Assembly (NCBI RefSeq): GCF_000981785.2
Contig: NZ_CP011304.1
Span: forward strand, 3,870,001-3,902,000
Reading direction: 5' to 3'
DNA from: Microcystis aeruginosa NIES-2549
GTDB taxonomy: Bacteria; Cyanobacteriota; Cyanobacteriia; Cyanobacteriales; Microcystaceae
DNA: 32,000 nt
A model generated the notes under the pieces. It saw nothing but the letters and a program-made list of their open reading frames with translations. It had not been told where the DNA came from and did no database searches. A program made the position numbers and the translations under genes. This document shows, one piece after another, positions 560-30,659 of this stretch; position 1 is the stretch's first letter; each line of letters starts with the position of its first letter.

Positions 560-2209
560 CTACCGCAATCTCCCTGATCGCAGGATACCGACAACTAACC
601 ATAAACCGATTAAACTAGCTGTAGCAAATAATACGGTACTAATAATAGTTAATTGCCGAGATTGGGCACTGGCTGTGACAATGGCAGCCCCGATAATTAA
701 GGAACCAATAATCACACTAAAAGCTAGTCGATTGGCGGAATTATCTAAACTGCGACGGAGATTATCTAAGTCGCGAATTTTCAGATTAACATTTAAAGTT
801 TCGGAGGTTAAACCATCTAGTAAAACTTCAATTTGACGGGGATATTTCAGGGAAAAAGATTTCAAGTCTAAAACTGTTCTTAGGGCAGTTTGTAGGGGAG
901 TGCTACCGATTAACTGTTGTTCAAGAATATTAGTTAATAGCGGTTTGACTTCTTCTAGGATATTAATATCAGGATTAAATTTTCGGGCAGTTCCTTCTAG
1001 ATTAGCGAGACTTTTGGCAAATAAACCTAAATTACCCGGAAGTTTAATTCTATTGCGACGGGCAATTTGCAAAAGTTCATAAACCACCTGACTAAAGTTA
1101 ATTTGATTTAAATTGAGGTTATAATATTTTCGCAGCATCCGCTCATAATCCACCTCTAATTGTACTAAGGTAATCGGGACTACTGACTCGGATAATTTAA
1201 TAGTTAGTTGACTGCATCTTTTCGCATCTAAGTCAACAATTGCCAATAACAATTCTGTTAAGATTTGTTGAGTTTGTGGGTCTAATCTGCCCACCATACC
1301 ACAGTCAATTAAAGCTACTCTACCATCGTCAAGATAGAAAATATTACCCGGGTGAGGATCGGCATGAAAGAAGCCATCAATATAAATTTGTTGAAAAAAT
1401 GACCGAAACAAAATCCTAGTTATTTCGCTTTTTCTTTGGGAAATTGTTTGCTCGGTTTCTGGTCTAGAAACATCGGCATCTAAAATTTGTTTTCCTTCTA
1501 ACCATTCTAACACTAATAGCTTGGAATTAGTTAAGTCCCAATAAATTTTAGGAATAACTAACTGTTTGGGTTCTGACCACCGACTCTGGGTTAAATTATA
1601 GCGTAATTGGTCAGTATAATGACCTTCTTGGGTGAAATCTAATTCCGCATTGACTGCTTTAATAAACTCCTCTGCTAAGTTAACAACGTCATAACTTTGA
1701 CCAAATTCTGTGAGGGCAACTAAATCAGCAATTACCTTAATTAAGGCACTATCTTGGGCGACAATTTTTTCGATCCCCGGACGCAAGACTTTAATCGCTA
1801 CTTCCTCCCCAGATAATAAAGTTGCCCGATGAATTTGCCCGATCGATCCTGCGGCGATCGGTTGGGGATTAATATACTTAAATACCTGTTTAATCGGTTT
1901 TGCTAACTGTTCGGTGATGACTATTTCTATATCCGTCCAAGCAACGGGAGGAACTTGCGCTTGTAGAGCAGTTAAAGCCTCGATATAATTAGCAGGTAGC
2001 AGATCGGGACGGGTACTAAGTAACTGTCCCAATTTGACATAAAAAGGCCCCAATTCCACGAGAATTTTTTTGAGAACTTCTGGGGTGGGAATCTGGGGAT
2101 TTTCTGTTTTTCCTAGGGTTAAAACCCCGCGCATATAGTCCCAACCGTTGCCGAGAACTATCTCAAGGATTTCTTTTTGTCTTTGACTGGTTTGGGGGAG
2201 TGAGAACAC
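560..2209 (-). CDS. ABC1/UbiB (AarF) family atypical protein kinase
   Basis: 549-aa ORF with ABC1-family motifs in the translation (LGPFYVKLGQLLSTRPDLLP, AAGSIGQIHRA, VAIKVLRPG, HADPHPGNIF, IDCGMVGRL). Hydrophobic C-terminal helices. The GTG start at 2209 is 4 nt from a heptamer array. Confidence 0.9.
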   Translation of the reverse strand: MFSLPQTSQRQKEILEIVLGNGWDYMRGVLTLGKTENPQIPTPEVLKKILVELGPFYVKLGQLLSTRPDLLPANYIEALTALQAQVPPVAWTDIEIVITEQLAKPIKQVFKYINPQPIAAGSIGQIHRATLLSGEEVAIKVLRPGIEKIVAQDSALIKVIADLVALTEFGQSYDVVNLAEEFIKAVNAELDFTQEGHYTDQLRYNLTQSRWSEPKQLVIPKIYWDLTNSKLLVLEWLEGKQILDADVSRPETEQTISQRKSEITRILFRSFFQQIYIDGFFHADPHPGNIFYLDDGRVALIDCGMVGRLDPQTQQILTELLLAIVDLDAKRCSQLTIKLSESVVPITLVQLEVDYERMLRKYYNLNLNQINFSQVVYELLQIARRNRIKLPGNLGLFAKSLANLEGTARKFNPDINILEEVKPLLTNILEQQLIGSTPLQTALRTVLDLKSFSLKYPRQIEVLLDGLTSETLNVNLKIRDLDNLRRSLDNSANRLAFSVIIGSLIIGAAIVTASAQSRQLTIISTVLFATASLIGLWLVVGILRSGRLR

Positions 2210-2213
2210 GGTA

Positions 2214-2290
2214 TTATCAGTTATCAGTTATCAGTTATCAGTTATCAGTGATCAGTTATCAGTTATCAGTTATTAGTTATTAGTTATCAG
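2214..2290. repeat. STRR-like heptanucleotide array (TTATCAG/TGATCAG/TTATTAG, about 11 units)
   Basis: Direct reading shows uninterrupted 7-nt periodicity, ending in CAGTGGGGAAG. Confidence 0.95.
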
Positions 2291-2316
2291 TGGGGAAGTT
2301 AGGTACTTATCGATGG

Positions 2317-2590
2317 CTGCATCCCACATTTGCAGAAATACCGATAATCAGCAATTATCAGTGACTCTTAAATTATTACAGATATATCAGCAGCTGCGTG
2401 TAAGCATCCCACAAAAAAACTAATGCGCAGGGGGTTCGGGGGAGGCGCTTCGTCCCCCGACGGGGGGTTTGGGGGGTAGAACCCCCCAAAAGCTTGGATT
2501 GAGCGATAAAACCGAAAGTAACGCCCGATTTTAGTAGAGAGTTTCCCTTAAAAAATCCCAACTTAGTAGATTTACAAAAATGAGATGTAC
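2317..2590 (-). mobile_element. MITE-like non-autonomous element, copy 1 of 4 in the tandem array
   Basis: About 274 bp bounded by imperfect terminal inverted repeats (CTGCATCCCACATTTGCAGAAA ... reverse complement of GTACATCTCATTTTTGTAAATC). No credible ORF. A homologous inverted copy lies at 30360-30640. Strand is arbitrary, set opposite to that copy. Confidence 0.7.
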
Positions 2591-2681
2591 CCCTTTCAGT
2601 TATCAGTTATCAGTTATCAGTTATCAGTTATCAGTTATTAGTTATTAGTTATCAGTGGGGAAGTTAGGTACTTATCGATGG

Positions 2682-2955
2682 CTGCATCCCACATTTGCAG
2701 AAATACCGATAATCAGCAATTATCAGTGACTCTTAAATTATTACAGATATATCAGCAGCTGCGTGTAAGCATCCCACAAAAAAACTAATGCGCAGGGGGT
2801 TCGGGGGAGGCGCTTCGTCCCCCGACGGGGGGTTTGGGGGGTAGAACCCCCCAAAAGCTTGGATTGAGCGATAAAACCGAAAGTAACGCCCGATTTTAGT
2901 AGAGAGTTTCCCTTAAAAAATCCCAACTTAGTAGATTTACAAAAATGAGATGTAC
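2682..2955 (-). mobile_element. MITE-like element, copy 2 of 4
   Basis: Same sequence as copy 1, shifted by 365 bp. Confidence 0.7.
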
Positions 2956-3046
2956 CCCTTTCAGTTATCAGTTATCAGTTATCAGTTATCAGTTATTAGT
3001 TATTAGTTATTAGTTATCAGTGGGGAAGTTAGGTACTTATCGATGG

Positions 3047-3320
3047 CTGCATCCCACATTTGCAGAAATACCGATAATCAGCAATTATCAGTGACTCTTA
3101 AATTATTACAGATATATCAGCAGCTGCGTGTAAGCATCCCACAAAAAAACTAATGCGCAGGGGGTTCGGGGGAGGCGCTTCGTCCCCCGACGGGGGGTTT
3201 GGGGGGTAGAACCCCCCAAAAGCTTGGATTGAGCGATAAAACCGAAAGTAACGCCCGATTTTAGTAGAGAGTTTCCCTTAAAAAATCCCAACTTAGTAGA
3301 TTTACAAAAATGAGATGTAC
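3047..3320 (-). mobile_element. MITE-like element, copy 3 of 4
   Basis: Same sequence as copy 1, shifted by 730 bp. Confidence 0.7.
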
Positions 3321-3411
3321 CCCTTTCAGTTATCAGTTATCAGTTATCAGTTATCAGTTATTAGTTATTAGTTATTAGTTATCAGTGGGGAAGTTAGGTA
3401 CTTATCGATGG

Positions 3412-3685
3412 CTGCATCCCACATTTGCAGAAATACCGATAATCAGCAATTATCAGTGACTCTTAAATTATTACAGATATATCAGCAGCTGCGTGTAAGC
3501 ATCCCACAAAAAAACTAATGCGCAGGGGGTTCGGGGGAGGCGCTTCGTCCCCCGACGGGGGGTTTGGGGGGTAGAACCCCCCAAAAGCTTGGATTGAGCG
3601 ATAAAACCGAAAGTAACGCCCGATTTTAGTAGAGAGTTTCCCTTAAAAAATCCCAACTTAGTAGATTTACAAAAATGAGATGTAC
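3412..3685 (-). mobile_element. MITE-like element, copy 4 of 4
   Basis: Same sequence as copy 1, shifted by 1095 bp. Confidence 0.7.
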
Positions 3686-3691
3686 CCCTTT

Positions 3692-3841
3692 CAGTTATCA
3701 GTTATCAGTTATCAGTTATCAGTTATCAGTGGGGAAGTTATCAGTGATCAGATTTGAGTTTTAAGTTAGCAGTATTAAATAGAGGTTTCCTACTGTCTTT
3801 TCACTGATTACTGTTTACTGATCACTGATTACTGAAAAAGC
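3692..3841 (+). repeat. composite heptamer element: (CAGTTAT)n, diverged core, (CTGATTA/CTGTTTA/CTGATCA)n, CTGAAAAAGC
   Basis: Direct reading. The left array is at 3692-3751 and the right array at 3801-3841. The architecture matches 15587-15716 and 19297-19384. Confidence 0.85.
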
Positions 3842-3859
3842 TGGTAACTAATATCAATC

Positions 3860-4933
3860 CTATAACAATTTCTCTAATTTGGGAGCGGTTTGTAATTGCT
3901 TGAGAACTTGTTTAATATCTTGGGTACGATCTTTGTGGACAACGAGAGTTGCTTTACCGTCGCGAACAATTACCAGATCTTTTAAACCAATAGTAACGAT
4001 CACTTCCTCCTCATCACTAGCATAGATAATAGAGCCTTCCGTATCCAAACCGACATGATTGGCCAGTTCAATATTTTTGCCCTTTGCTTCTAGTAATCTT
4101 TCCAGAGAATTCCAATCTCCCAGATCATCCCAACCAAAATTAGCGGGTAAAACGTAAGCGAGTTGGGTTTTTTCCATCAAAGCATAATCGATACTTTTTT
4201 TCTCTAAATCCTCATAGGCAGCGATGCCCCGATCGATCAGAGGCTGTAAAATATTATTAGCGTGGGTTTTTAGCTCCTCTAAAACCACTTGTCCCTGAAA
4301 GATAAACATTCCGCTATTCCAGCTAAAAAGTCCCGTTTCTAGGAAATTTTCGGCCGTGGTGCGATCGGGTTTTTCCGTAAAACGACTCACTTTATAGACG
4401 GGTAAACCATTAAATTCGCCCTGATTTTCTCCCTGTTCGATATAACCGTAACCGGTGGAGGGATAATCGGGTTTAATCCCTAAAGTAACGATCGCTTTTT
4501 GGCTGACGGCCACTTCTACGGCCGCTTTTAAAGTGTTAATATAAGCCTCTTGATTACCAATATAATGATCGGCAGGAAAAAAACCGATCGCCACTTCCTT
4601 ACCATAACGTTTTATCACTTCTAAGGTGGCCCAAGTCACAGCCGGGGCCGTATCCTTGCCCACCGGTTCCACTAATAGGTTACTCTCCGGTAAATCGGGC
4701 AGTTGTTCGCGGACACCATCAGCGATCGCACTAGCGGTAATTACCCAGAGATTTTCCCAACCTGCCCCTAAAGATAATAGACGATCGGCTGTTGCTTGTA
4801 AAAGACTGCGACCACTACCATCAAGACAGAGAAACTGTTTCGGACGCGCTAGACGACTGAGAGGCCAAAAACGTTCCCCTTTACCACCGGCGAGAATGAC
4901 TGGAACAAGCGACTGATTCATAAAAATTGACAC
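3860..4933 (-). CDS. mannose-1-phosphate guanylyltransferase (ManC/CpsB-like nucleotidyltransferase, no cupin/PMI domain)
   Basis: 357-aa ORF. N-terminal sugar-nucleotidyltransferase signature VILAGGKGERFWPLSR. Family-typical FPADHYI and GYGYIE segments. Confidence 0.85.
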   Translation of the reverse strand: MSIFMNQSLVPVILAGGKGERFWPLSRLARPKQFLCLDGSGRSLLQATADRLLSLGAGWENLWVITASAIADGVREQLPDLPESNLLVEPVGKDTAPAVTWATLEVIKRYGKEVAIGFFPADHYIGNQEAYINTLKAAVEVAVSQKAIVTLGIKPDYPSTGYGYIEQGENQGEFNGLPVYKVSRFTEKPDRTTAENFLETGLFSWNSGMFIFQGQVVLEELKTHANNILQPLIDRGIAAYEDLEKKSIDYALMEKTQLAYVLPANFGWDDLGDWNSLERLLEAKGKNIELANHVGLDTEGSIIYASDEEEVIVTIGLKDLVIVRDGKATLVVHKDRTQDIKQVLKQLQTAPKLEKLL

Positions 4934-15586: not shown

Positions 15587-15716
15587 AGTTATCAGATGTG
15601 AGTTTTCAGTTCACTGATTACTGTTTACTGTTTACTGGACGGCTACGCCGTGCCTTTGGCAACACTGAAAAAAGCTTCCCACTGATTACTGTTTACTGTT
15701 TACTGATCACTGATCA
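15587..15716 (+). repeat. composite heptamer element(s) with conserved core CAGATGTGAGTTTTCAGTTCACTG and CTGAAAAAAGC junction
   Basis: Direct reading gives GTTATCAG, the core, (CTGATTA/CTGTTTA)n, then CACTGAAAAAAGCTTCCCACTG, then (ATTACTG/TTTACTG/ATCACTG)n. The element ends 29 nt before the ribD ATG. Confidence 0.85.
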
Positions 15717-15744
15717 AGTCTCCCCTCCTTTGGAGAAATCAACC

Positions 15745-19296: not shown

Positions 19297-19384
19297 CTTA
19301 TCAGTTATCAGATGTAAGTTTTCAGTTCACTTATACTGTTTACTGTTTACTGATAACTGTTTACTGTTTACTGATAACTGAAAA
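19297..19384 (+). repeat. composite heptamer element ending flush with the helicase ATG
   Basis: CTTATCAGTTATCAG, core CAGATGTAAGTTTTCAGTTCACT, (CTGTTTA/CTGATAA)n, then CTGAAAA followed by ATG at 19385. CAGTTATCAG and CTGATAACTG are exact reverse complements. Confidence 0.9.
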
Positions 19385-20887
19385 ATGCGCTTACCCACCC
19401 TCAAATATGAGCGAGGAACCTTAATTCTCCATCCACCACCAAAGGGGAAAAAATGGCTAGATTTTGCCACTTGGGATGATCGTATCGAAAGATTTCGCAT
19501 TTTGGCCATTCATTATCGTCCTCTCGTGGAAACTCTACAGGAGGAGGGCATTAACTTCCAAGATGAAGCAAAAGCTTTCAACAATTTAGAATTAATTGCC
19601 AGTTTTGAACGGGAACCCTACCCCCACCAAACGGAAGCGTTAATCGCTTGGAAAAAATCCCAGAGAAGGGGTGTTATCGTCCTTCCCACCGCTGCTGGTA
19701 AAACCTATCTTGCCCAATTAGCTCTACAATCGACTCCCCGCAGCACCTTAATTATCGTGCCGACTATTGATTTAATGCACCAGTGGTATGCCCAGATGTT
19801 GGCGGCTTTTCCCGATGCCGAGGTGGGATTATTAGGGGGAGGTTCCAAGGATAATAGTGCTATTTTAATCGCCACCTATCAAAGTGCGGCAATTTATTCA
19901 GAAACTCTTGGCAATCGTTACGCTTTTTTGATTTTTGATGAATGTCATCATTTACCATCGGATTTCTTTCGGAAAATAGCGGAAGATTCGATCGCACCCT
20001 ATCGTTTAGGCTTAACAGCAACACCGGATCGCGGTGATGGTAGTCATCAAGATTTAGATTATCTTATCGGTACAATTGTTTATCAAAAAAGTCCCCAAGA
20101 CTTGTCAGGAAAAGCCCTAGCGGATCACGAAATAATTCAAATTAAAGTGAAACTATCTGCCAAAGAACAGGAAAAATATCAAGAAGCAATTAAAATTCGC
20201 AATGATTTTTTAAGAAAAAATAATCTCAGTTTGTCTGGTTTAGATGGTTGGCAAAATTTTGTCATGATTAGTGCCAGAAGTAGCGAAGGGCGCCGGGCGA
20301 TGTTAGCGCACCGGGAGTCGAAGGAAATATCCTCCGGAACCCAGGGAAAATTGCGGGTTTTAGCCGAGTTAATCTGTGAACACCATCCGGAACCAATTTT
20401 GATTTTTACCAACGATAATGCCACAGTTTACCGCATTTCCGAGAGCTTTTTAATACCTGCCATAACCCATCAAACTCCCGTGAAAGAACGCCATGAAATC
20501 CTGACCCGTTTTCGTCAGGGAGAATACAAAATTCTGGTGACTTCCCATGTTCTCAATGAAGGGGTTGATGTGCCGGAAGCAGGCATCGCGATTATTTTAT
20601 CGGGAACCGGTTCCACCCGGGAATATATTCAGCGTTTGGGACGGGTGTTAAGAAAAGGCCAACAAGAGGATAAACGGGCGATTTTGTATGAAGTGATAGC
20701 CGAAAATACCACGGAGGAAAAAACCTCCCAACGACGACGGGGAGAGCAGAAAAATAAAACTAGCTATAAAACCGCTAATCGACAATTGGAATTATTGCCT
20801 TCTCCTCCAAAAAAATCTTTTTCTTTCCCGAAAGCTGCCGAATCTTCTACCCCTTGGGTAAGTTCTCCAGAGTCAGAGGAAGAATAG
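19385..20887 (+). CDS. XPB/Rad25 (ERCC3)-like superfamily-2 DNA helicase
   Basis: Motifs I PTAAGKT, Ia IIVPTIDLMHQW, II DECHH, III GLTATPDRGDG, V SHVLNEGVDVPEA and VI GSTREYIQRLGRVLR. An N-terminal domain of about 70 aa precedes the core. The C-terminal tail is basic then acidic. Confidence 0.85.
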   Translation: MRLPTLKYERGTLILHPPPKGKKWLDFATWDDRIERFRILAIHYRPLVETLQEEGINFQDEAKAFNNLELIASFEREPYPHQTEALIAWKKSQRRGVIVLPTAAGKTYLAQLALQSTPRSTLIIVPTIDLMHQWYAQMLAAFPDAEVGLLGGGSKDNSAILIATYQSAAIYSETLGNRYAFLIFDECHHLPSDFFRKIAEDSIAPYRLGLTATPDRGDGSHQDLDYLIGTIVYQKSPQDLSGKALADHEIIQIKVKLSAKEQEKYQEAIKIRNDFLRKNNLSLSGLDGWQNFVMISARSSEGRRAMLAHRESKEISSGTQGKLRVLAELICEHHPEPILIFTNDNATVYRISESFLIPAITHQTPVKERHEILTRFRQGEYKILVTSHVLNEGVDVPEAGIAIILSGTGSTREYIQRLGRVLRKGQQEDKRAILYEVIAENTTEEKTSQRRRGEQKNKTSYKTANRQLELLPSPPKKSFSFPKAAESSTPWVSSPESEEE

Positions 20888-22197: not shown

Positions 22198-22330
22198 GAA
22201 TTATGAATTATGAATTATGAATTATGAAGTGGGGTATATTTTCAGTGAACAGTAAACAGTGAACAGTAAACAGTTAACTGATAACTGATAACTGATAACT
22301 GATAACTGATAACTGATAACTGATAACTGA
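22198..22330 (-). repeat. heptamer arrays: (GAATTAT)x4, then (CAGTGAA/CAGTAAA)x5 and (CTGATAA)x8
   Basis: Direct reading. On the minus strand this reads (CAGTTAT)n, (CTGTTTA/CTGTTCA)n, CTGAAAATA, pointing toward the dehydrogenase ATG at 22173. Confidence 0.9.
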
Positions 22331-22331
22331 T

Positions 22332-24224
22332 TTAGGATTCTACCATTTGCAGAAATTGGGCTTCTGAAATGGTTTTTATGCCTAATTTTTGAGCCTTTTT
22401 GAGTTTCTCACCGGGAGCTTTACCGAGGAGAATATAATCAGTGTTCGCACTGGGGGAACCGGTAACAGTACCACCGACATTAATAATCAATGATTTCGCT
22501 TTCTCGCGACTGATTTTGCTGAAGGTTCCTAGTATAACTACGCTTTTTCCCTTTAGGGGATTTTCTGCGGATTCTTGACTCGTTTGGACTATCTCCGCTG
22601 CGGGTTGCACTTCTAAACTTGTGTCGGCAACCGGGATTTTTTCTGCTGCTACTACAGGGGTTTCCTTGGCAATCACCGGGGGGGTTTCTGGTTCTTCTAC
22701 TACCGGAGTTTCACTAATAATTGCTTCTGGTTCATTAGTGTTAATGGGGGCAGTTTGTCGAGAAAAATCGTCTCTTTCTTGTTGGAGGTTTTGAATTTTA
22801 ACCTCTAAAGCGGCGATTTCTTCTTGCTTAGTTGCTAACTCACCCTCAAACTTAATTTTTTCCTTTTCTAAAGCTTTAGCTGCCGTTTTTTGGACTTCTA
22901 AATCTTGAGTTAGTTGGCGATTTTGTTGGCTTAATTCCTCGATATGACGGGAAGTTGTGGTCTCTAATTGGTCTTTTTCGGCACTTAACTGGTGTAGTTG
23001 AATCTCTAAATTAGAAATGTTTTCCCGATAGGTTTCTAGCTGTTGCGGTAACTGGGTTAATTCCTGTAATTGCCCTTCTAAATGGGCAATTTTTGCCTGA
23101 GAATCGGCCAATTGTTGGGGTAACTGGGTTAATTCCTGTAATTGCCCTTCTAAATGGGCAATTTTTGCCTGAGAATCGGCCAATTGTTGGGGTAACTGGG
23201 TTAATTCCTGTAATTGCCCTTCTAAATCAGCAATTTTTTCAGCAGCAGTGGTTAATTCTGCCGATAATTCCCCTTTCTGGGCTGCTAAAGCTTGTAACTC
23301 CAGTTTAGCGGCTTCGAGATGAGCGCCGAGACTGTCCTTTTCGGCGGTTATGGCTGTCACTTGAGCGACGGTTTCTTGAAGTTTTATAGTTAAATTGTCG
23401 CATTCTTGGCCTAAAGAGAGCGATCGAGTTTGACTTGCGGCTAAATCTTCGCTGAGAGACTTTTTTTCCCGCTCTAACCCGCTAATTTGACCCTGTAAGC
23501 TGGCTATTTCCTGCTGTCCTCGCTCATACTGTTCTGTTTGGTGAGCCAGATTCTGTTCTAAGGTTTGAATTTGACCTTGCAAGCTGGGAATTTGGGCGGC
23601 TAAATCGCTTAATTCTCGGTTTTTATGCTCTAAATCGGCCACTTTTGCCCTTAATTCCTCGGCTTTTTCTAGTTCTTGCTGTAAGAGAGCTTTATCCTGT
23701 TCTAGGGTCTGAATTTGGCTATAGAGAGAGGTGGTCTGTTTTTTGGTCAAATCAAATTGACGGTTAATTTCACCTTTTTGCTGCTCTAAAGTTTGAATCT
23801 GTGCCTCTAGGCTAGTAATTTGGGCTTTTTCTCGCTCTAATTGCTCCATCAAACCAGCTTTCTCCGCTTCTATTTCCTTAGCGGTGGTTTTCAGGTGTTC
23901 GATTTCACCCTCACCTATCTGGACAGCTTGCTGGAGGGACTGGAGAGAATTTTCTAAATCCGTAGCTTTGTGCTGTAATTGGGCGGAATGTTGTTCTATG
24001 TAAATTATTTTGGCGTGCAGCTGCTGATTTTCGTCTTTTAAGTCTGATTGCGCCACATCTAAACCCTTGACTTGAGCCAATAAATCTGAGTTACTTTGCT
24101 GTAATTGCGCTTGTGCGACTAAAAGGGCGGTATTTTTGCTGACGAGACCAGAGCGCGACCAGAGGAATAGTCCTCCGAAAACAGCACTTAAACCTAATCC
24201 TTCATAAATTAATTCGTTGAGCAT
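22332..24224 (-). CDS. membrane-anchored long coiled-coil protein with C-terminal LigA-type BRCT domain
   Basis: TM helix (GLGLSAVFGGLFLW). About 470 aa of heptad-rich Q/E/L sequence. A Pro/Glu/Thr-rich linker. C-terminus KGKSVVILGTFSKISREKAKSLIINVGGTVTGSPSANTDYILLGKAPGEKLKKAQKLGIKTISEAQFL closely resembles the BRCT of NAD-dependent DNA ligase. Start at the ATG at 24224, preceded by AGGAGG; the track start at 24257 is GTG. Confidence 0.8.
   Translation of the reverse strand: MLNELIYEGLGLSAVFGGLFLWSRSGLVSKNTALLVAQAQLQQSNSDLLAQVKGLDVAQSDLKDENQQLHAKIIYIEQHSAQLQHKATDLENSLQSLQQAVQIGEGEIEHLKTTAKEIEAEKAGLMEQLEREKAQITSLEAQIQTLEQQKGEINRQFDLTKKQTTSLYSQIQTLEQDKALLQQELEKAEELRAKVADLEHKNRELSDLAAQIPSLQGQIQTLEQNLAHQTEQYERGQQEIASLQGQISGLEREKKSLSEDLAASQTRSLSLGQECDNLTIKLQETVAQVTAITAEKDSLGAHLEAAKLELQALAAQKGELSAELTTAAEKIADLEGQLQELTQLPQQLADSQAKIAHLEGQLQELTQLPQQLADSQAKIAHLEGQLQELTQLPQQLETYRENISNLEIQLHQLSAEKDQLETTTSRHIEELSQQNRQLTQDLEVQKTAAKALEKEKIKFEGELATKQEEIAALEVKIQNLQQERDDFSRQTAPINTNEPEAIISETPVVEEPETPPVIAKETPVVAAEKIPVADTSLEVQPAAEIVQTSQESAENPLKGKSVVILGTFSKISREKAKSLIINVGGTVTGSPSANTDYILLGKAPGEKLKKAQKLGIKTISEAQFLQMVES
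23041..23235. repeat. in-frame 72-bp tandem repeat (2 full units plus about 0.6) inside the coiled-coil CDS
   Basis: Units start at 23041, 23113 and 23185. Units 1 and 2 differ at one nucleotide. Each encodes LQELTQLPQQLADSQAKIAHLEGQ. Confidence 0.9.
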
Positions 24225-24547
24225 ATCTACCCTCCTAGACAAGCGAAAAACAGCCACCTAACCGAACTGATGCGGCAATTTTGGTTATAGACCTACATCT
24301 CTACTTATATCAGTTACGGGGTACATTCGGGGGAAGGGCGGCGAAAAAGTCACTTCTTTCATCCCAGTGTAAAAGGTGATTTAGCTATTCGCGTCATGCT
24401 AACTTGTACCTGATCCCATTCTTGGGTGATTTCCAGGTCGATTTCTTCCTGATGATCAAAATAGTAAGCAACATTTTAGTCGTGTCAGTCCACTACTGGA
24501 TCGGCGATCGCATAAATATTACCACAGTAGCTTAACAGGAGTCGCAC

Positions 24548-25967: not shown

Positions 25968-26150
25968 AGTCAAGTAGGGTGCGTCAGGCAATCCCTTGTT
26001 TTTAGGGAAAAAATCAAGAGCTAAATATTGCCGTAACGCACCACAAAGAAAGGTTTCAGCAGTCAAGTAGGGTACGTTAGACAATCCCTTGTTTTTAGGG
26101 AAAAAATCAAGAGCTAAATATTGCCGTAACGCACCACAAAGAAAAGTTTT
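25968..26150. repeat. 93-bp direct tandem repeat x2, each carrying a GGTGCGT...GTAACGCACC hairpin
   Basis: Units start at 25968 and 26061. In unit 1 the arms GGTGCGTCAGGCAAT and ATTGCCGTAACGCACC pair. In unit 2 the left arm carries 3 substitutions. A related hairpin lies at 25006-25031. Confidence 0.9.
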
Positions 26151-26159
26151 TAGCTACTT

Positions 26160-28211
26160 TTATAAGCCGCTATGACGGAGGAGAGGCTCGGTACTAGGTT
26201 CGCGACCGCGGAAAGCTTTAAAAACATTCATAGGATGAGAACTTCCCCCCATAGCTAAGACAGTATCGCGAAAACGGCGGCCGATCGATTTCACTGCTTC
26301 TTCGTTATCTAATCCCACTTCCTCGAAAGCGGCAAAAGCATCGGCGCTGAGAACTTCTGCCCATTTATAACTATAGTAACCCGCCGCATAACCGCCGGCG
26401 AAAATATGCCCAAAAGAACACAAGAAAGCATCTTCCGGCAGGGGAGGAATTATCGTCGTCGTCGCCGCCAAACGCTGTCTAACTTGTTTAGGAGTTTCGC
26501 TGCCATTGGGTTGATAACGATGGTGTAATTCCAAATCTACTAAAGACAAATGTAACTGACGCAGCATAGCCGAACCGCTCATATAATTCTTAGCTAGAAG
26601 CAGTTTTTGATAGTAATGTTCGGGGAGAGTTTCACCGGTTTCGTAGTGTTTGGCCATACTCATTAAAGTAGGGCGATCATAACACCAATTTTCCATAAAT
26701 TGACTGGGCAATTCCACCGCGTCCCACTCAACGTTATTAATACCCGCTGCGCCGGAATAGTCCACAGTGGTTAACATATGCTGTAAACCGTGGCCAAATT
26801 CGTGAAATAGGGTAGTTACCTCCTCAAAGGTCATTAAACTGGGGTTTCCGTCCACTGGAGGCGTTTGATTGCAGATTAAATAAGCCACAGGTAAACGCAC
26901 CTCGGTGCCGGTTTTGGCCCGACCGATACAGACATCCATCCAAGCACCGCCGCGTTTTTCGGCGGGACGACTGTAGGCATCGAGGTAGAAATAGGCGATT
27001 TTTTCGCCCTTTTCGTCGTTAATCTGGAAATAACGCACATCGGGATGCCAGATAGGGGACTGACCGTCGGCGGCGATAATTTCTACCGCAAAAATCCGTT
27101 TAGCGAGGCTAAATATGCCTTCTAAAACCCGTGGTAGGGGGAAATAGGGGCGTAATTCCTCGGCACTAAAGTTAAACTTGGCCTGACGCTGTTTTTCTGA
27201 CCAATAGGCTATATCCCAATGCTTGAGATCGTCGGTTCCCGCAAAAGTTTTTAAGGCCTCTAAATCCTGTTTTGCCGCTTCATAGCTTACTTGCCGCAAA
27301 TTGTCAAGCAATTTCTCGATTTCATCCACAGAATTGGCCATTTTCCTGGCAAGACTGACCTCGGCGTAGGTACTATAACCTAAAAGATGGGCCTGTTCCT
27401 GACGAAGTTGCAAAATGCGATCAATTAAGGGATTATTATCCAATTCTCCCAGATCTGCCCGACTAACGTAGGCTTTATAGAGTTTTTCGCGCAATTCCCG
27501 ATTATCGCTGTACTTCATAAAGGGGAAATAACTGGGAAAATCGAGGGTAATCACCCAGGGGCCGGTTTCGCTGCTGGCGTTAGTTTCCCCTTGGGTGCGG
27601 GCGGTTTGGGCGGCTAAACTAAGGAGACTAGGGGGTAAACCGGCGATATCTTCTGGGGTTGTTAGTTTCAGTTGGAAAGCTTTGGTGGCATCGAGGATGT
27701 TATTGGAAAATTTCGTGGTGATTTCCGCTAATTCCAGTTGAATCGCGTTAAATCTGTCTTTTTTCTCCCCTACTAATCCCACCCCGGCCAATTGGGCATC
27801 CCGCAGGGAAGCTTCGACAATGCGCTGTTGTGCCTCGTCTAATTGCCCCCAGCTTTCTCCTTGGCGCAGGGACAAAAATGCTTCATAAATGGGTTTACTT
27901 TGGCTTAAACGGCTAATAAACTCGACTACCTGTGGTTGTACGGTTTCGTAAGCTTGACGCAATTCTGGGCTATTTTTTACCCCCATCAGATGACCGATAA
28001 TCCCCCAACTCCAGCTTAAACGTTCTTCGATCCGGGTGAGGGGTTCGACTAATTTTTCCCAAGTGGGGGCAATCTGCGCTTCTAGATCGGTTAATTCTCG
28101 GGCCAGTTCCTGCAAAAGTTGCGTCATGCCAGGGACAATCAGGCCGGGTTGGATTTGGTCAAAAGCCGGTAATCCTTGACCGGCAAGCAGCGGGTTACTG
28201 GTGTTCGTCAT
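26160..28211 (-). CDS. prlC: oligopeptidase A (M3-family zinc metallopeptidase)
   Basis: 683-aa ORF with zinc motif HEFGHGLQH and M3-typical length and architecture. Confidence 0.92.
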   Translation of the reverse strand: MTNTSNPLLAGQGLPAFDQIQPGLIVPGMTQLLQELARELTDLEAQIAPTWEKLVEPLTRIEERLSWSWGIIGHLMGVKNSPELRQAYETVQPQVVEFISRLSQSKPIYEAFLSLRQGESWGQLDEAQQRIVEASLRDAQLAGVGLVGEKKDRFNAIQLELAEITTKFSNNILDATKAFQLKLTTPEDIAGLPPSLLSLAAQTARTQGETNASSETGPWVITLDFPSYFPFMKYSDNRELREKLYKAYVSRADLGELDNNPLIDRILQLRQEQAHLLGYSTYAEVSLARKMANSVDEIEKLLDNLRQVSYEAAKQDLEALKTFAGTDDLKHWDIAYWSEKQRQAKFNFSAEELRPYFPLPRVLEGIFSLAKRIFAVEIIAADGQSPIWHPDVRYFQINDEKGEKIAYFYLDAYSRPAEKRGGAWMDVCIGRAKTGTEVRLPVAYLICNQTPPVDGNPSLMTFEEVTTLFHEFGHGLQHMLTTVDYSGAAGINNVEWDAVELPSQFMENWCYDRPTLMSMAKHYETGETLPEHYYQKLLLAKNYMSGSAMLRQLHLSLVDLELHHRYQPNGSETPKQVRQRLAATTTIIPPLPEDAFLCSFGHIFAGGYAAGYYSYKWAEVLSADAFAAFEEVGLDNEEAVKSIGRRFRDTVLAMGGSSHPMNVFKAFRGREPSTEPLLRHSGL

Positions 28212-28302
28212 AATTGTTGGTCTGCAAGGGTGGGTAATCTGTATCTTTTACCACCCTAACCTAAATCCCTGACCATCTATCCAGGCGATCGAACGCCGGA
28301 GC

Positions 28303-28342
28303 TTTTTCAGTGATCAGTGATCAGTAATCAGTGATCAGTGGG
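28303..28342 (-). repeat. heptamer array (CAGTGAT/CAGTAAT)x4 with CAGTGGGGA and TTTTTCAG flanks
   Basis: Direct reading. The minus strand reads CCCCACTG-(ATCACTG/ATTACTG)n-AAAAAGC, about 95 nt upstream of the prlC ATG and pointing toward it. Confidence 0.9.
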
Positions 28343-28839
28343 GAGATGGGGAAGTGGGGAAATTGAACTAAAACCCCAAAACACTAAAACTCCAACACCT
28401 AAAACCTGTCTCCTATCTCCTGAATACTGTCTCCCGACTTGGAGAATACTGACTTCTAACCCAATGTGGGACAAAGATAAGCAAAAATTATTTATTGACT
28501 GCAAAAGATTGAGAATATTTAAATTAACATTCCGCAATATTTACAAATTCTTAAGAATTAATTGAGAAAGATTTTTATTTAACAACGATGTTACAAGGGT
28601 TACAGCGATTTGATAGAATTTCATAGTGGGTTATTCTGTGCTTTTTTGGGCAGCAATGGTTGAAACCCTTGCCACACCTAGAAGGTATTCCTAATTAGGA
28701 CGGTTAAATCAGTCAATTTCACCCATAACGATGATCTTTTTTTTGTGTAGTTTTATTGCAAAAAAAAAGTTTTTTTGACAAAAAGCACAAAGTATGATAT
28801 GGACAACGTATTTCTGGCTGCGAGTAATTATTGTAGAGG

Positions 28840-30326: not shown

Positions 30327-30359
30327 TAAGTTTTGGCAACAAGAGGAGAGGTAAAACGG

Positions 30360-30640
30360 GTGCATCTCATTTTTGTAAATCTACTAATTTGGGATTTTTA
30401 AGGGGAAACTTTCTCCTAAAATTGGGCGTTACTTTCGGTTTTATCACTCAACCCTAGGGTTGAGTGATAGTAGGGTTGATTCATGAATCAACCCTACCCA
30501 AACCCCCCGTTGGAGCCCAAACCCCGGAGCGCATTAGTTTTTCGGTGGGATGCTTACACGCGATTGTTCATATTTTTGTACTAATTTAAGAGTCACCGAT
30601 AATTCCTAATTGTCGGTATTTCTGCAAATGTGGGATGCAC
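30360..30640 (+). mobile_element. diverged copy of the MITE-like element, inverted relative to the 2.3-3.7 kb array, with a nested 43-nt insertion
   Basis: Aligns by eye end to end with the reverse complement of 2317-2590. The TIRs are GTGCATCTCATTTTTGTAAATCTAC and the reverse complement of GTGCATCCCACATTTGCAGAAATAC (17/25 match, first 7 identical). Confidence 0.75.
30442..30497. repeat. two abutting 28-bp perfect palindromes (TATCACTCAACCCTAGGGTTGAGTGATA and GTAGGGTTGATTCATGAATCAACCCTAC)
   Basis: Self-complementarity was checked base by base. The second palindrome is identical to 9195-9222. Confidence 0.9.
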
Positions 30641-30659
30641 TAGCTAAAACTCCTTTCTT

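Follow-up and report, generated by a model that had tools for sequence, protein, structure and literature searches.

A probable strain-specific tandem amplification of a resident MITE and its flanking heptamers upstream of an ABC1 kinase gene in Microcystis aeruginosa NIES-2549

In M. aeruginosa NIES-2549, the spacer between a ManC-like gene and an ABC1 kinase gene contains a 365-bp unit repeated four times, head to tail, and composed of a MITE and flanking heptamers. How did so regular a block arise, and does it serve the gene next to it? The array occupies positions 2214–3751 of the window, the 32,000-nucleotide stretch of contig NZ_CP011304.1 analyzed here (3,870,001 to 3,902,000, forward strand), to which all coordinates refer. 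TRF over 2231–3730 returned a period of 365, 4.1 copies, and 99% matches. The units start at 2232, 2597, 2962, and 3327, and the two positions at which they vary, unit offsets 18 (G/T) and 35 (C/T), are within the heptamer tract. TRF and the comparison of the units thus agree with the exact period and the four near-identical units of the preliminary description, and the repeat cannot be a product of chance. The features of the locus, together with one diverged MITE copy elsewhere in the window, are as follows.

560–2209, minus strand: ABC1/UbiB-type atypical kinase, 549 aa, GTG start (Pfam PF03109, E = 5.9e-71)
2214–2290, unstranded: left (ABC1-proximal) heptamer tract, 11 × TTATCAG-type (TRF and sequence anatomy)
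2291–2314, unstranded: spacer TGGGGAAGTTAGGTACTTATCGAT, found again at 2656–2679, 3021–3044, and 3386–3409
2315–2593, plus strand: MITE copy 1, 279 bp, GGCTGCATCCCACATTTGCAGAAAT...ATTTACAAAAATGAGATGTACCCC (alignment to other copies)
2594–2655, unstranded: junction tract 1, TTTCAG and 8 heptamers, pattern cccccttc, with a right-flank-like start and a left-flank-like end (hybrid)
2680–2958, plus strand: MITE copy 2, 279 bp, identical to copy 1
2959–3020, unstranded: junction tract 2, TTTCAG and 8 heptamers, pattern cccctttc, one C/T different from tract 1
3045–3323, plus strand: MITE copy 3, 279 bp, identical to the other copies
3324–3385, unstranded: junction tract 3, identical to tract 2
3410–3688, plus strand: MITE copy 4, 279 bp, identical to the other copies
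3689–3751, unstranded: right (ManC-proximal) direct-repeat arm, TTTCAG, 5 heptamers, TGGGGAAG, and TTATCAGTGATCAG
3860–4921/4933, minus strand: ManC-like mannose-1-phosphate guanylyltransferase-type nucleotidyltransferase (Pfam PF00483 and PF22640)
30358–30642, minus strand: diverged MITE copy, ~77–83% identity, flanks GTTTTAGC / GTTTTACC (7/8 TSD)

The Pfam matches agree with the flanking genes as initially named. The ABC1 kinase matches the ABC1 family protein of M. aeruginosa NIES-2549 at 100% identity. Relative to the direction in which both genes are transcribed, ABC1 lies downstream of the array and the ManC-like gene is the upstream neighbor of the array. Read from the ATG at 4921, the ManC-like gene encodes 353 aa, the length at which its orthologues elsewhere in Microcystis are called. 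From the GTG of ABC1 (minus strand, 2209–2207), GGTA (2210–2213) leads into the 11 heptamers of the left tract, followed by four blocks of the 24-nt spacer and the 279-bp MITE. TTTCAG and 8 heptamers stand between successive blocks, and the fourth block is followed by the right arm, which ends at 3751. The array is 4 nt from the ABC1 GTG and 109 nt from the ManC-like stop, in line with the 4 nt and about 110 nt given before. The composition of the unit proposed at first, a repeated element with a spacer and heptamers, also holds, but the heptamer counts along the array are 11/8/8/8/5 rather than 9–11, and the element is 279 bp rather than ~274 bp. The spacer, listed before among the parts of the unit, does not belong to the element: it comprises TGGGGAAG, a variant module of the heptamer tract, together with host sequence and one copy, the left one, of an 8-bp TSD, TTATCGAT.

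Judged by its sequence, the core of the array is a genuine 279-bp MITE, and the label it received at first is upheld by its TIR, 8-bp TSDs, dispersed copies, small size, and lack of a transposase. Copies of the family are 247–286 bp long, below 600 bp, and carry no transposase gene. The bounding TIR (~23 nt; GGGTGCATCCCACATTTGCAGAAAT / GGGGTACATCTCATTTTTGTAAAT) is present as described, but it is imperfect, as is apparent when GGGTGCATCCCACATTTGCAGAAAT is aligned with the reverse-complemented right end GGGGTACATCTCA-TTTTTGTAAAT, and an exact-seed repeat finder did not report it. Both ends are kept in all 17 aligned copies and pair in the predicted fold. Perfect 8-bp TSDs flank the MITE at independent loci (TTCTCCCT at L059, TTCTCGTT at L045, GATTACTG at L054, and CCCAGAGA at L043) and also at L003 (TTATCGAT). 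TSDs matching at 7 of 8 positions flank the copy at 30358–30642, which contains a nested palindromic insertion, and the copy at L022; none was found at L033 and L023, where one was sought. A 25-nt MITE terminus occurs in 19 genome stretches and 25 metagenome stretches, all of them from Microcystis, in which the MITE has at least 10 distinct genomic contexts, and the plasmid and phage collections contain no match to the 365-bp unit. The sole ORF of the unit, of 61 aa on the minus strand, matches nothing in Pfam, and indels disrupt it in other copies; since it is not conserved among the copies, we rejected a coding role. No parent IS with matching TIRs was found in the DNA examined, including L025, L031, and L039, which share only the first 38–45 nt of the MITE. 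The ISL3 element of L039 was rejected as the parent because its TIR (GGCTCTTCG) is different and it is a nested, unrelated insertion in a related element.

The MITE of NIES-2549 resembles known Microcystis MITEs in that it is small, non-coding, multi-copy, intergenic, restricted to Microcystis, and bounded by TIRs. It may belong to the same family as one of MaeMITEa–h of NIES-843, with reported lengths of 176–429 bp (Kaneko et al. 2007, PMC2779907), to which it was compared by description only. In the MITE passages of a paper on PCC 7806, a 187-bp ISL3-related MITE has a TSD of the same length, 8 bp, but its TIR, GGCTCTTCG, differs from the GGGTGCATCC... of the NIES-2549 MITE (PMC11448079).

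Other strains provide a series of alleles at the ManC–ABC1 locus, where the MITE shows a presence/absence polymorphism, with both empty and filled alleles. L004-type loci and two complete genomes, L001 and L067, have an empty site. L003, L006, and L029 carry the primary insertion, with a perfect TTATCGAT TSD on both sides. In L012-type loci, L036, L042, L052, and L056, a single MITE has heptamers and TGGG[G/T]AAG on both sides. In L042, both arms carry the NIES-2549 variant, TGGGGAAG, and the MITE shares 98.9% identity with that of the window. The heptamer tract, which has between 1 and 17 units depending on the strain, is the only sequence upstream of ABC1 common to all alleles. The start and end of the array match the single-copy alleles exactly, and the right-arm sequence has the same ending in these alleles and in the empty site.

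None of ~70 other stretches has a tandem MITE copy, and the NIES-2549 window alone contains more than one. The cross-strain comparison of copy number called for in the preliminary description gives 0 or 1 copy at other Microcystis loci, most of which are short-read assemblies that can collapse an identical array to a "1.18-copy" form or break there, so that other strains may also carry arrays. Confident values of 0 or 1 come from three long-read genomes only (L001, L067, and L030). The contigs of L070 and L071, with the closest ABC1 variants (P0002 and P0007), begin within the heptamer tract, 32 nt before ABC1, and are uninformative on copy number; those of L018 and L068 terminate within the MITE. 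The tandem-junction pattern had 0 matches in the metagenome collection, a weak result since short-read assemblies seldom keep such junctions.

The near-identity of the units and the absence of the array from every other assembly would also fit an over-expansion of one MITE unit by the assembler. However, NIES-2549 was assembled with HGAP and Quiver from PacBio RS II reads of a 10-kb size-selected library at ~123× (PMC4447913), and single reads span the 1.5-kb array many times over. In addition, unit 1 and units 3–4 have private heptamer variants, which a spurious expansion of a single unit would not make, and short-read assemblies are not expected to display such an array. Given the 123× PacBio coverage and the size selection, we consider an artefact very unlikely.

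In bacteria, unequal recombination between flanking direct repeats leads to tandem duplication and amplification, and the mechanism of amplification itself is ordinary. The substrates for it are visible at this locus. The left tract and the TGGGGAAG that follows it form the left arm of the direct repeat bracketing the single-copy MITE, and progenitor-type alleles, in which direct repeats lie where the array begins and ends, are found in L042, L056, L036, L012, and L052. The junction tracts open like the right arm, with TTTCAG and runs of c-type TTATCAG, and close like the left arm, with ...TTATTAG TTATTAG TTATCAG TGGGGAAGTTAGGTAC (ttc + TGGGGAAGTTAGGTAC). All three junctions contain 8 heptamers, and the period is therefore constant at 365. 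The allele series and the hybrid junction tracts lend good support to the recent unequal-crossover amplification, seeded by the heptamer tracts, that was suggested at the outset. We consider it likely that the array arose when a resident MITE was amplified in tandem, along with the short repeats on its flanks, in this strain specifically, and that it most probably has no function of its own.

This amplification can be arranged in four steps. The 279-bp non-autonomous element first inserted in the ManC–ABC1 spacer at TTATCGAT, as is seen in the primary-insertion alleles. A rearrangement of the heptamer tract may then have placed the single MITE between direct repeats of (TTATCAG)n and TGGGGAAG, 40–100 bp long; the alleles of this step are observed, and their order is inferred. 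As the anatomy of the junctions suggests, an unequal exchange between the two arms of this repeat, right and left, would have produced a two-copy allele with a hybrid 8-heptamer junction. Further unequal exchanges, in register by whole 365-bp units, may have raised the number to four, and the three internal junctions would be equal in length because these later exchanges were in register. Replication slippage is an alternative route to unequal homologous recombination. Recency of the amplification, rather than conservation, seems to account for the identity of the units. We regard the amplification as recent and probably neutral, where neutrality is an argument from absence of evidence. A perfect 1.5-kb direct repeat is expected to be unstable, and the 123× consensus still has four copies, which is compatible with recency and also with weak selection.

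As in bacterial amplifications in general, the array ends in two direct-repeat arms and has hybrid junctions, a fixed period, and near-identical units. Unlike the usual ones, its unit is geneless and very short (365 bp). Since the amplified segment contains no gene, dosage selection, the usual reason why such amplifications are seen, is not obviously applicable. The STRR heptanucleotide repeats of cyanobacteria, reportedly described by Mazel and coworkers in 1990, are tandem heptamers in intergenic regions. The (TTATCAG)n tracts are likewise tandem and intergenic, numerous in the window, and polymorphic in length among strains, and their heptamer is presumably none of the consensus units of STRR1–3 of Calothrix and Anabaena. 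In contrast to STRR, the heptamer tracts of NIES-2549 are the recombination substrate and not the feature itself. Elsewhere in the window, a second small element at 25968–26149 differs in tandem copy number among strains, and such events therefore seem common in the NIES-2549 genome.

Eukaryotic satellites derived from transposable elements similarly have as their head-to-tail monomer a MITE or other TE with a microsatellite-like flank (PMC12628747, PMC9659126). Those arrays are often long and present at many loci, whereas that of NIES-2549 has four copies at one locus in one strain. The earlier statement that a tandemly amplified MITE is not a standard bacterial class is consistent with a 2024 review of prokaryotic MITEs that lacks the word "tandem" (PMC10969869). 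The word also has 0 occurrences in PMC2779907, and the MITE passages of PMC11448079 do not mention tandem repeats of MITEs.

The position of the array directly 5′ of ABC1, on the transcribed side and 4 nt from the GTG, raises the question of whether the MITE repeats influence ABC1 expression in cis and whether selection keeps four copies. Each unit might contribute a weak outward promoter, or the GC-rich hairpins, stacked along the array, might insulate ABC1 from petC-petA-ManC read-through, attenuate that read-through, or stabilize the 5′ region of ABC1. Promoters on other bacterial MITEs are documented, for example on Correia elements (PMC10969869). Each unit of the array contains two strong GC hairpins (e.g., TTTGGGGGGT/ACCCCCCAAA), and the predicted fold of the MITE is somewhat more stable than that of shuffled sequence (z = −2.2 and −2.6). 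An extra GC hairpin, present in the long form of the element, retains its pairing via compensatory variants among the copies. However, a scan with a simple sigma-70 consensus, which can miss cyanobacterial promoters, found no promoter-like site inside any unit; terminator-like sites are also absent from the units, and such sites are rarer in the region as a whole than in shuffled sequence. Since no T run follows the GC hairpins, they were rejected as intrinsic terminators. Strains with no copy or a single one at the ABC1 site, complete genomes among them, do well, and what all alleles share upstream of ABC1 is the heptamer tract and not the MITE. A cis-acting role under selection is thus unlikely, and with no promoter-like site in the units and no tandem copy at any other sampled locus, the multi-copy promoter of selected copy number put forward earlier is not sustained. 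A bolder version, in which the array is a bacterial "proto-satellite" whose copy number is selected as a rheostat of ABC1 expression or as an insulator against petCA-ManC read-through, seems to us more unlikely still. If true, it would give Microcystis a heritable, reversible expression switch made from a transposon remnant.

The array was also likened to that of NsiR1, a 60-nt RNA encoded near hetF in 12 tandem copies, each with a heterocyst-type promoter (PMC4030482). In both, direct repeats stand in tandem beside a gene, in intergenic DNA of a cyanobacterium, and by layout alone the units of NIES-2549 could be sRNA genes with their own promoters. The units of NsiR1, however, are short sRNA genes with a conserved promoter each and are conserved across heterocystous genomes (PMC4030482), whereas the NIES-2549 array has no promoter or terminator consensus and is not conserved across strains. 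Its unit core is transposon-derived, with TSDs, and occurs at many unrelated loci. TCCGGA, the heterocyst-promoter motif, is not present in the unit. An Rfam 15 scan of 1500–4500 at E ≤ 10 found no cyanobacterial sRNA family, and its matches (snoR21, blv_FSE, PhotoRC-I, and others) were at chance level, far under the gathering scores. The array is also missing from all other Microcystis loci sampled, which have 0–1 copy and are mostly short-read assemblies in which collapse is possible. We conclude that the parallel with NsiR1 does not extend beyond layout and that sRNA genes of this type are extremely improbable here.

The array is real, but as a structural variant it is ordinary, and nothing points to a function for it. 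Its effect on the cell is likely incidental, namely ~1.1 kb of extra hairpin-rich DNA between ManC and ABC1. For annotation, the 1.5-kb block should be labeled as repeat_region or mobile_element copies and not be mined for genes or RNAs. Insertions, deletions, and rearrangements are concentrated in the ManC–ABC1 spacer of Microcystis, a hot spot at which short-read assemblies systematically break or collapse. The value of the locus is modest: it offers a clean, fully reconstructable case in which a MITE among microsatellite-like heptamers became the monomer of a bacterial tandem array, a route that is well known for eukaryotic satellites and hardly documented in prokaryotes.

Tandem Repeats Finder detected a repeat with a period of 365 bp at 2231-3730 (4.1 copies, 99% matches), and a register-by-register comparison of the units starting at 2232, 2597, 2962 and 3327 revealed just two variable positions, both in the heptamer tract. 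The 365-bp tandem repeat of the preliminary description is thus real and was accurately described. The array and its flanking genes are arranged as follows.

Array and flanking genes in the window
560-2209, minus: ABC1/UbiB-type kinase gene (PF03109, E = 5.9e-71)
2209-2207, minus: GTG start codon of ABC1
2210-2213: GGTA, between the GTG and the heptamers
2214-2290: left heptamer tract, 11 units of the TTATCAG type
Repeated block, four times: 24-nt spacer TGGGGAAGTTAGGTACTTATCGAT and a 279-bp element
2315-2593: 279-bp element, copy 1
2680-2958: 279-bp element, copy 2
3045-3323: 279-bp element, copy 3
3410-3688: 279-bp element, copy 4
Inter-block junctions: TTTCAG and exactly 8 heptamers
Array close, ending at 3751: TTTCAG, 5 heptamers, TGGGGAAG and TTATCAGTGATCAG
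3860-4921/4933, minus: ManC-like nucleotidyltransferase gene (PF00483 and PF22640)

Since both genes lie on the minus strand, the array follows ManC and immediately precedes ABC1 in the direction of transcription. The window's ABC1 product is 100% identical to the ABC1 protein of Microcystis aeruginosa NIES-2549, and this identifies the genome. For NIES-2549, a 10-kb size-selected library was sequenced on PacBio RS II to ~123x and assembled with HGAP/Quiver (PMC4447913). Since the 1.5-kb array is short enough to be spanned by single PacBio reads, and two private heptamer variants distinguish its units, an assembly artefact is unlikely.

A BLAST search of the window with the unit turned up a fifth core copy, diverged and lacking heptamers, at about 30354-30639 (minus), which sets the boundaries of the dispersed element. 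Its 25-nt left terminus occurs in 19 stretches, every one from Microcystis, when one genome per species is scanned, and in 25 further stretches of the metagenome collection. At independent loci, full-length copies are flanked by 8-bp target-site duplications, which are perfect in L059 (TTCTCCCT), L045 (TTCTCGTT), L054 (GATTACTG, itself within a heptamer tract) and L043 (CCCAGAGA) among the comparison loci, and match at 7/8 positions at window 30358-30642 (GTTTTAGC/GTTTTACC) and in L022. An imperfect inverted repeat of ~23 nt (GGGTGCATCCCACATTTGCAGAAAT / GGGGTACATCTCA-TTTTTGTAAAT) terminates the element on both sides; it is kept in 17 aligned copies, and the two ends pair in predicted folds (z = -2.2 and -2.6). 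Since the copies are dispersed, with duplications and inverted-repeat ends, and the 61-aa ORF found in every unit lacks a Pfam match and is disrupted by indels in other element copies, the 279-bp element is by definition a MITE. The family exists in a short form of ~247 bp and a long form with an extra 32-33-bp GC-rich hairpin (columns 115-148 of alignment A2; window 2793-2825 in unit 2), the stem of which varies by compensatory changes (GGGGGA..TCCCCC, GGGGACG..CGTCCCC, GGGGGCG..CGCCCCC).

Microcystis genomes are MITE-rich: NIES-843 carries 517 copies of MaeMITEa-h (PMC2779907), and a 187-bp ISL3-related MITE is described from PCC 7806 (PMC11448079). No parent IS of the array's MITE was found. 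An ISL3-family IS in L039 (5700-7290; terminal repeat GGCTCTTCG, 8-bp duplication TGTATTCA) was rejected as the parent, since it has different ends and is merely nested in a related element, which has only its first ~38 nt in common with the array's MITE. The ends of this IS agree with those reported for the PCC 7806 MITE (PMC11448079).

Orthologous loci, selected by near-identical ABC1 or cytochrome f proteins, provide a series of alleles at the ManC-ABC1 spacer.

Alleles at the ManC-ABC1 spacer
State a, empty site: L004-type, ABC1-GGTA-(TTATCAG)n-TGGGGAAG-TTATCAGTGATCAG-ATTTGAG...; complete genomes L001 (without TGGGGAAG) and L067 (TTATCAGTTATCAG after TGGGGAAG)
State b, primary insertion: L003, L006, L029; perfect TTATCGAT on either side of the MITE, with the right-hand copy directly next to the stop codon of ManC
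State c, single bracketed MITE: L012-type, L036, L042, L052, L056; one direct repeat, heptamers and TGGG[G/T]AAG, brackets the MITE on both sides
State d, other variants: right arm missing (L027-type, L030); other small elements present (L066); different upstream DNA joined at or near the MITE (L019, L021, L069)

ManC and ABC1 lie 280-592 bp apart in these strains, versus 1650 bp in the window. State b alleles reveal that the spacer noted in each unit consists of host DNA and a single copy of the target-site duplication. L042 is a state c allele in which both arms carry the NIES-2549 variant TGGGGAAG, and the MITE is 98.9% identical. The different upstream DNA in L019, L021 and L069 suggests MITE-mediated rearrangements, or assembly chimeras in the metagenome scaffold. 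The spacer (L001 5720-6001, L004 9692-10001, L066 8182-8775, L019 6617-7067, L021 4013-4655, L069 2917-3442) is a hot spot, and three other unrelated small palindromic elements reside there in different strains.

The start of the array matches the left (ABC1-proximal) arm of state c exactly and its end matches the right (ManC-proximal) arm exactly, while the three internal junction tracts are hybrids, which start right-arm-like (TTTCAG, then TTATCAG units) and end left-arm-like (TTATTAG TTATTAG TTATCAG TGGGGAAGTTAGGTAC). Such junctions are the signature of unequal exchange between the arms of the bracketing repeat. This exchange would have created the first tandem copies, and later copies may have been gained by in-register exchanges of whole 365-bp units rather than by new events in the length-variable tracts; 8 heptamers would then be expected at all three junctions. 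The four 279-bp MITEs and four 24-bp spacers contain zero substitutions, which points to a recent origin of the array; gene conversion inside an older array is a formal alternative explanation for the identical units. The array is best explained, with good probability, by a recent amplification of a MITE-containing segment through recombination between the heptamer-based direct repeats on either side of it, and the unequal crossover first proposed is well supported by the allele series and the hybrid junctions.

A 93-bp unit at 25968-26149, directly downstream of ORF 26160-28211(-), is likewise present in two tandem copies (96% identity), and within it lies a small palindromic element (GGGTGCGTCAGGCAAT...ATTGCCGTAACGCACC). 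At orthologous loci, the copy number ranges from one to three (one in L055; two in tandem and a third nearby in L060 6500-6805), which fits a general tendency of the NIES-2549 genome toward tandem amplification. The (TTATCAG)n tract at 2214-2290 stops 4 nt short of the ABC1 GTG, ranges in length from 1 to 17 units across Microcystis strains (L001-L071), and is the only ABC1-upstream sequence common to all alleles. Many further heptamer tracts (ACTGATT/ACTGTTT/TAACTGA/TCAGTGA types) are found at gene ends or close to them across the window (3786-3855, 15589-15740, 19311-19387, 22239-22336, 28300-28349), and the L054 MITE copy is inserted within a tract of such a type. These further tracts resemble the STRR-type repeats of other cyanobacteria. 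At 22985-23257, a 72-bp repeat (about 2.8-3 copies, 97% to 73% identity) within the long ORF 22332-24257(-) would encode a 24-residue protein repeat.

A selected role as a promoter or sRNA array had also been considered. No Rfam family matched, even at E<=10, and a consensus scan found no promoter-like or terminator-like sites inside any unit; no T runs follow the GC-rich hairpins. The sole promoter-like match (CTGATA-17-GATAAT, minus, 2241-2213) sits beside the GTG in the heptamer tract present in every allele, and its -10 hexamer stops 3 nt short of the GTG, which leaves too little room for a normal leader. Zero-copy and one-copy strains are frequent, complete genomes among them. We infer from this lack of signals that the array is probably neutral, and the selected role finds no support. 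The suggested likeness to NsiR1 also fails. NsiR1 is a 60-nt sRNA whose 12 tandem copies each have a promoter of their own, and it is conserved in heterocystous genomes (PMC4030482); the array is unlike it on each defining feature examined, with no promoter-like site inside any unit, no RNA family match and no tandem copies in any other stretch of the genome and metagenome scans. A tandem-junction-specific pattern had no match in the metagenome collection.

Copy number is zero or one in the other strains compared, mostly short-read assemblies, in which an identical array may collapse to state c or break the contig; four contigs (L018, L068, L070, L071) end within the MITE or heptamer tract. 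That the array is unique to NIES-2549, the sister strain of which is NIES-2481 (PMC5865083), therefore holds firmly only in comparison with the three long-read genomes (L001, L067, L030).

The array adds a further instance of processes that are already known and does not amount to a new kind of system. Tandem arrangements go unmentioned in a 2024 review of prokaryotic MITEs (PMC10969869), and a MITE turned into a tandem monomer is a mildly unusual case for a bacterium.
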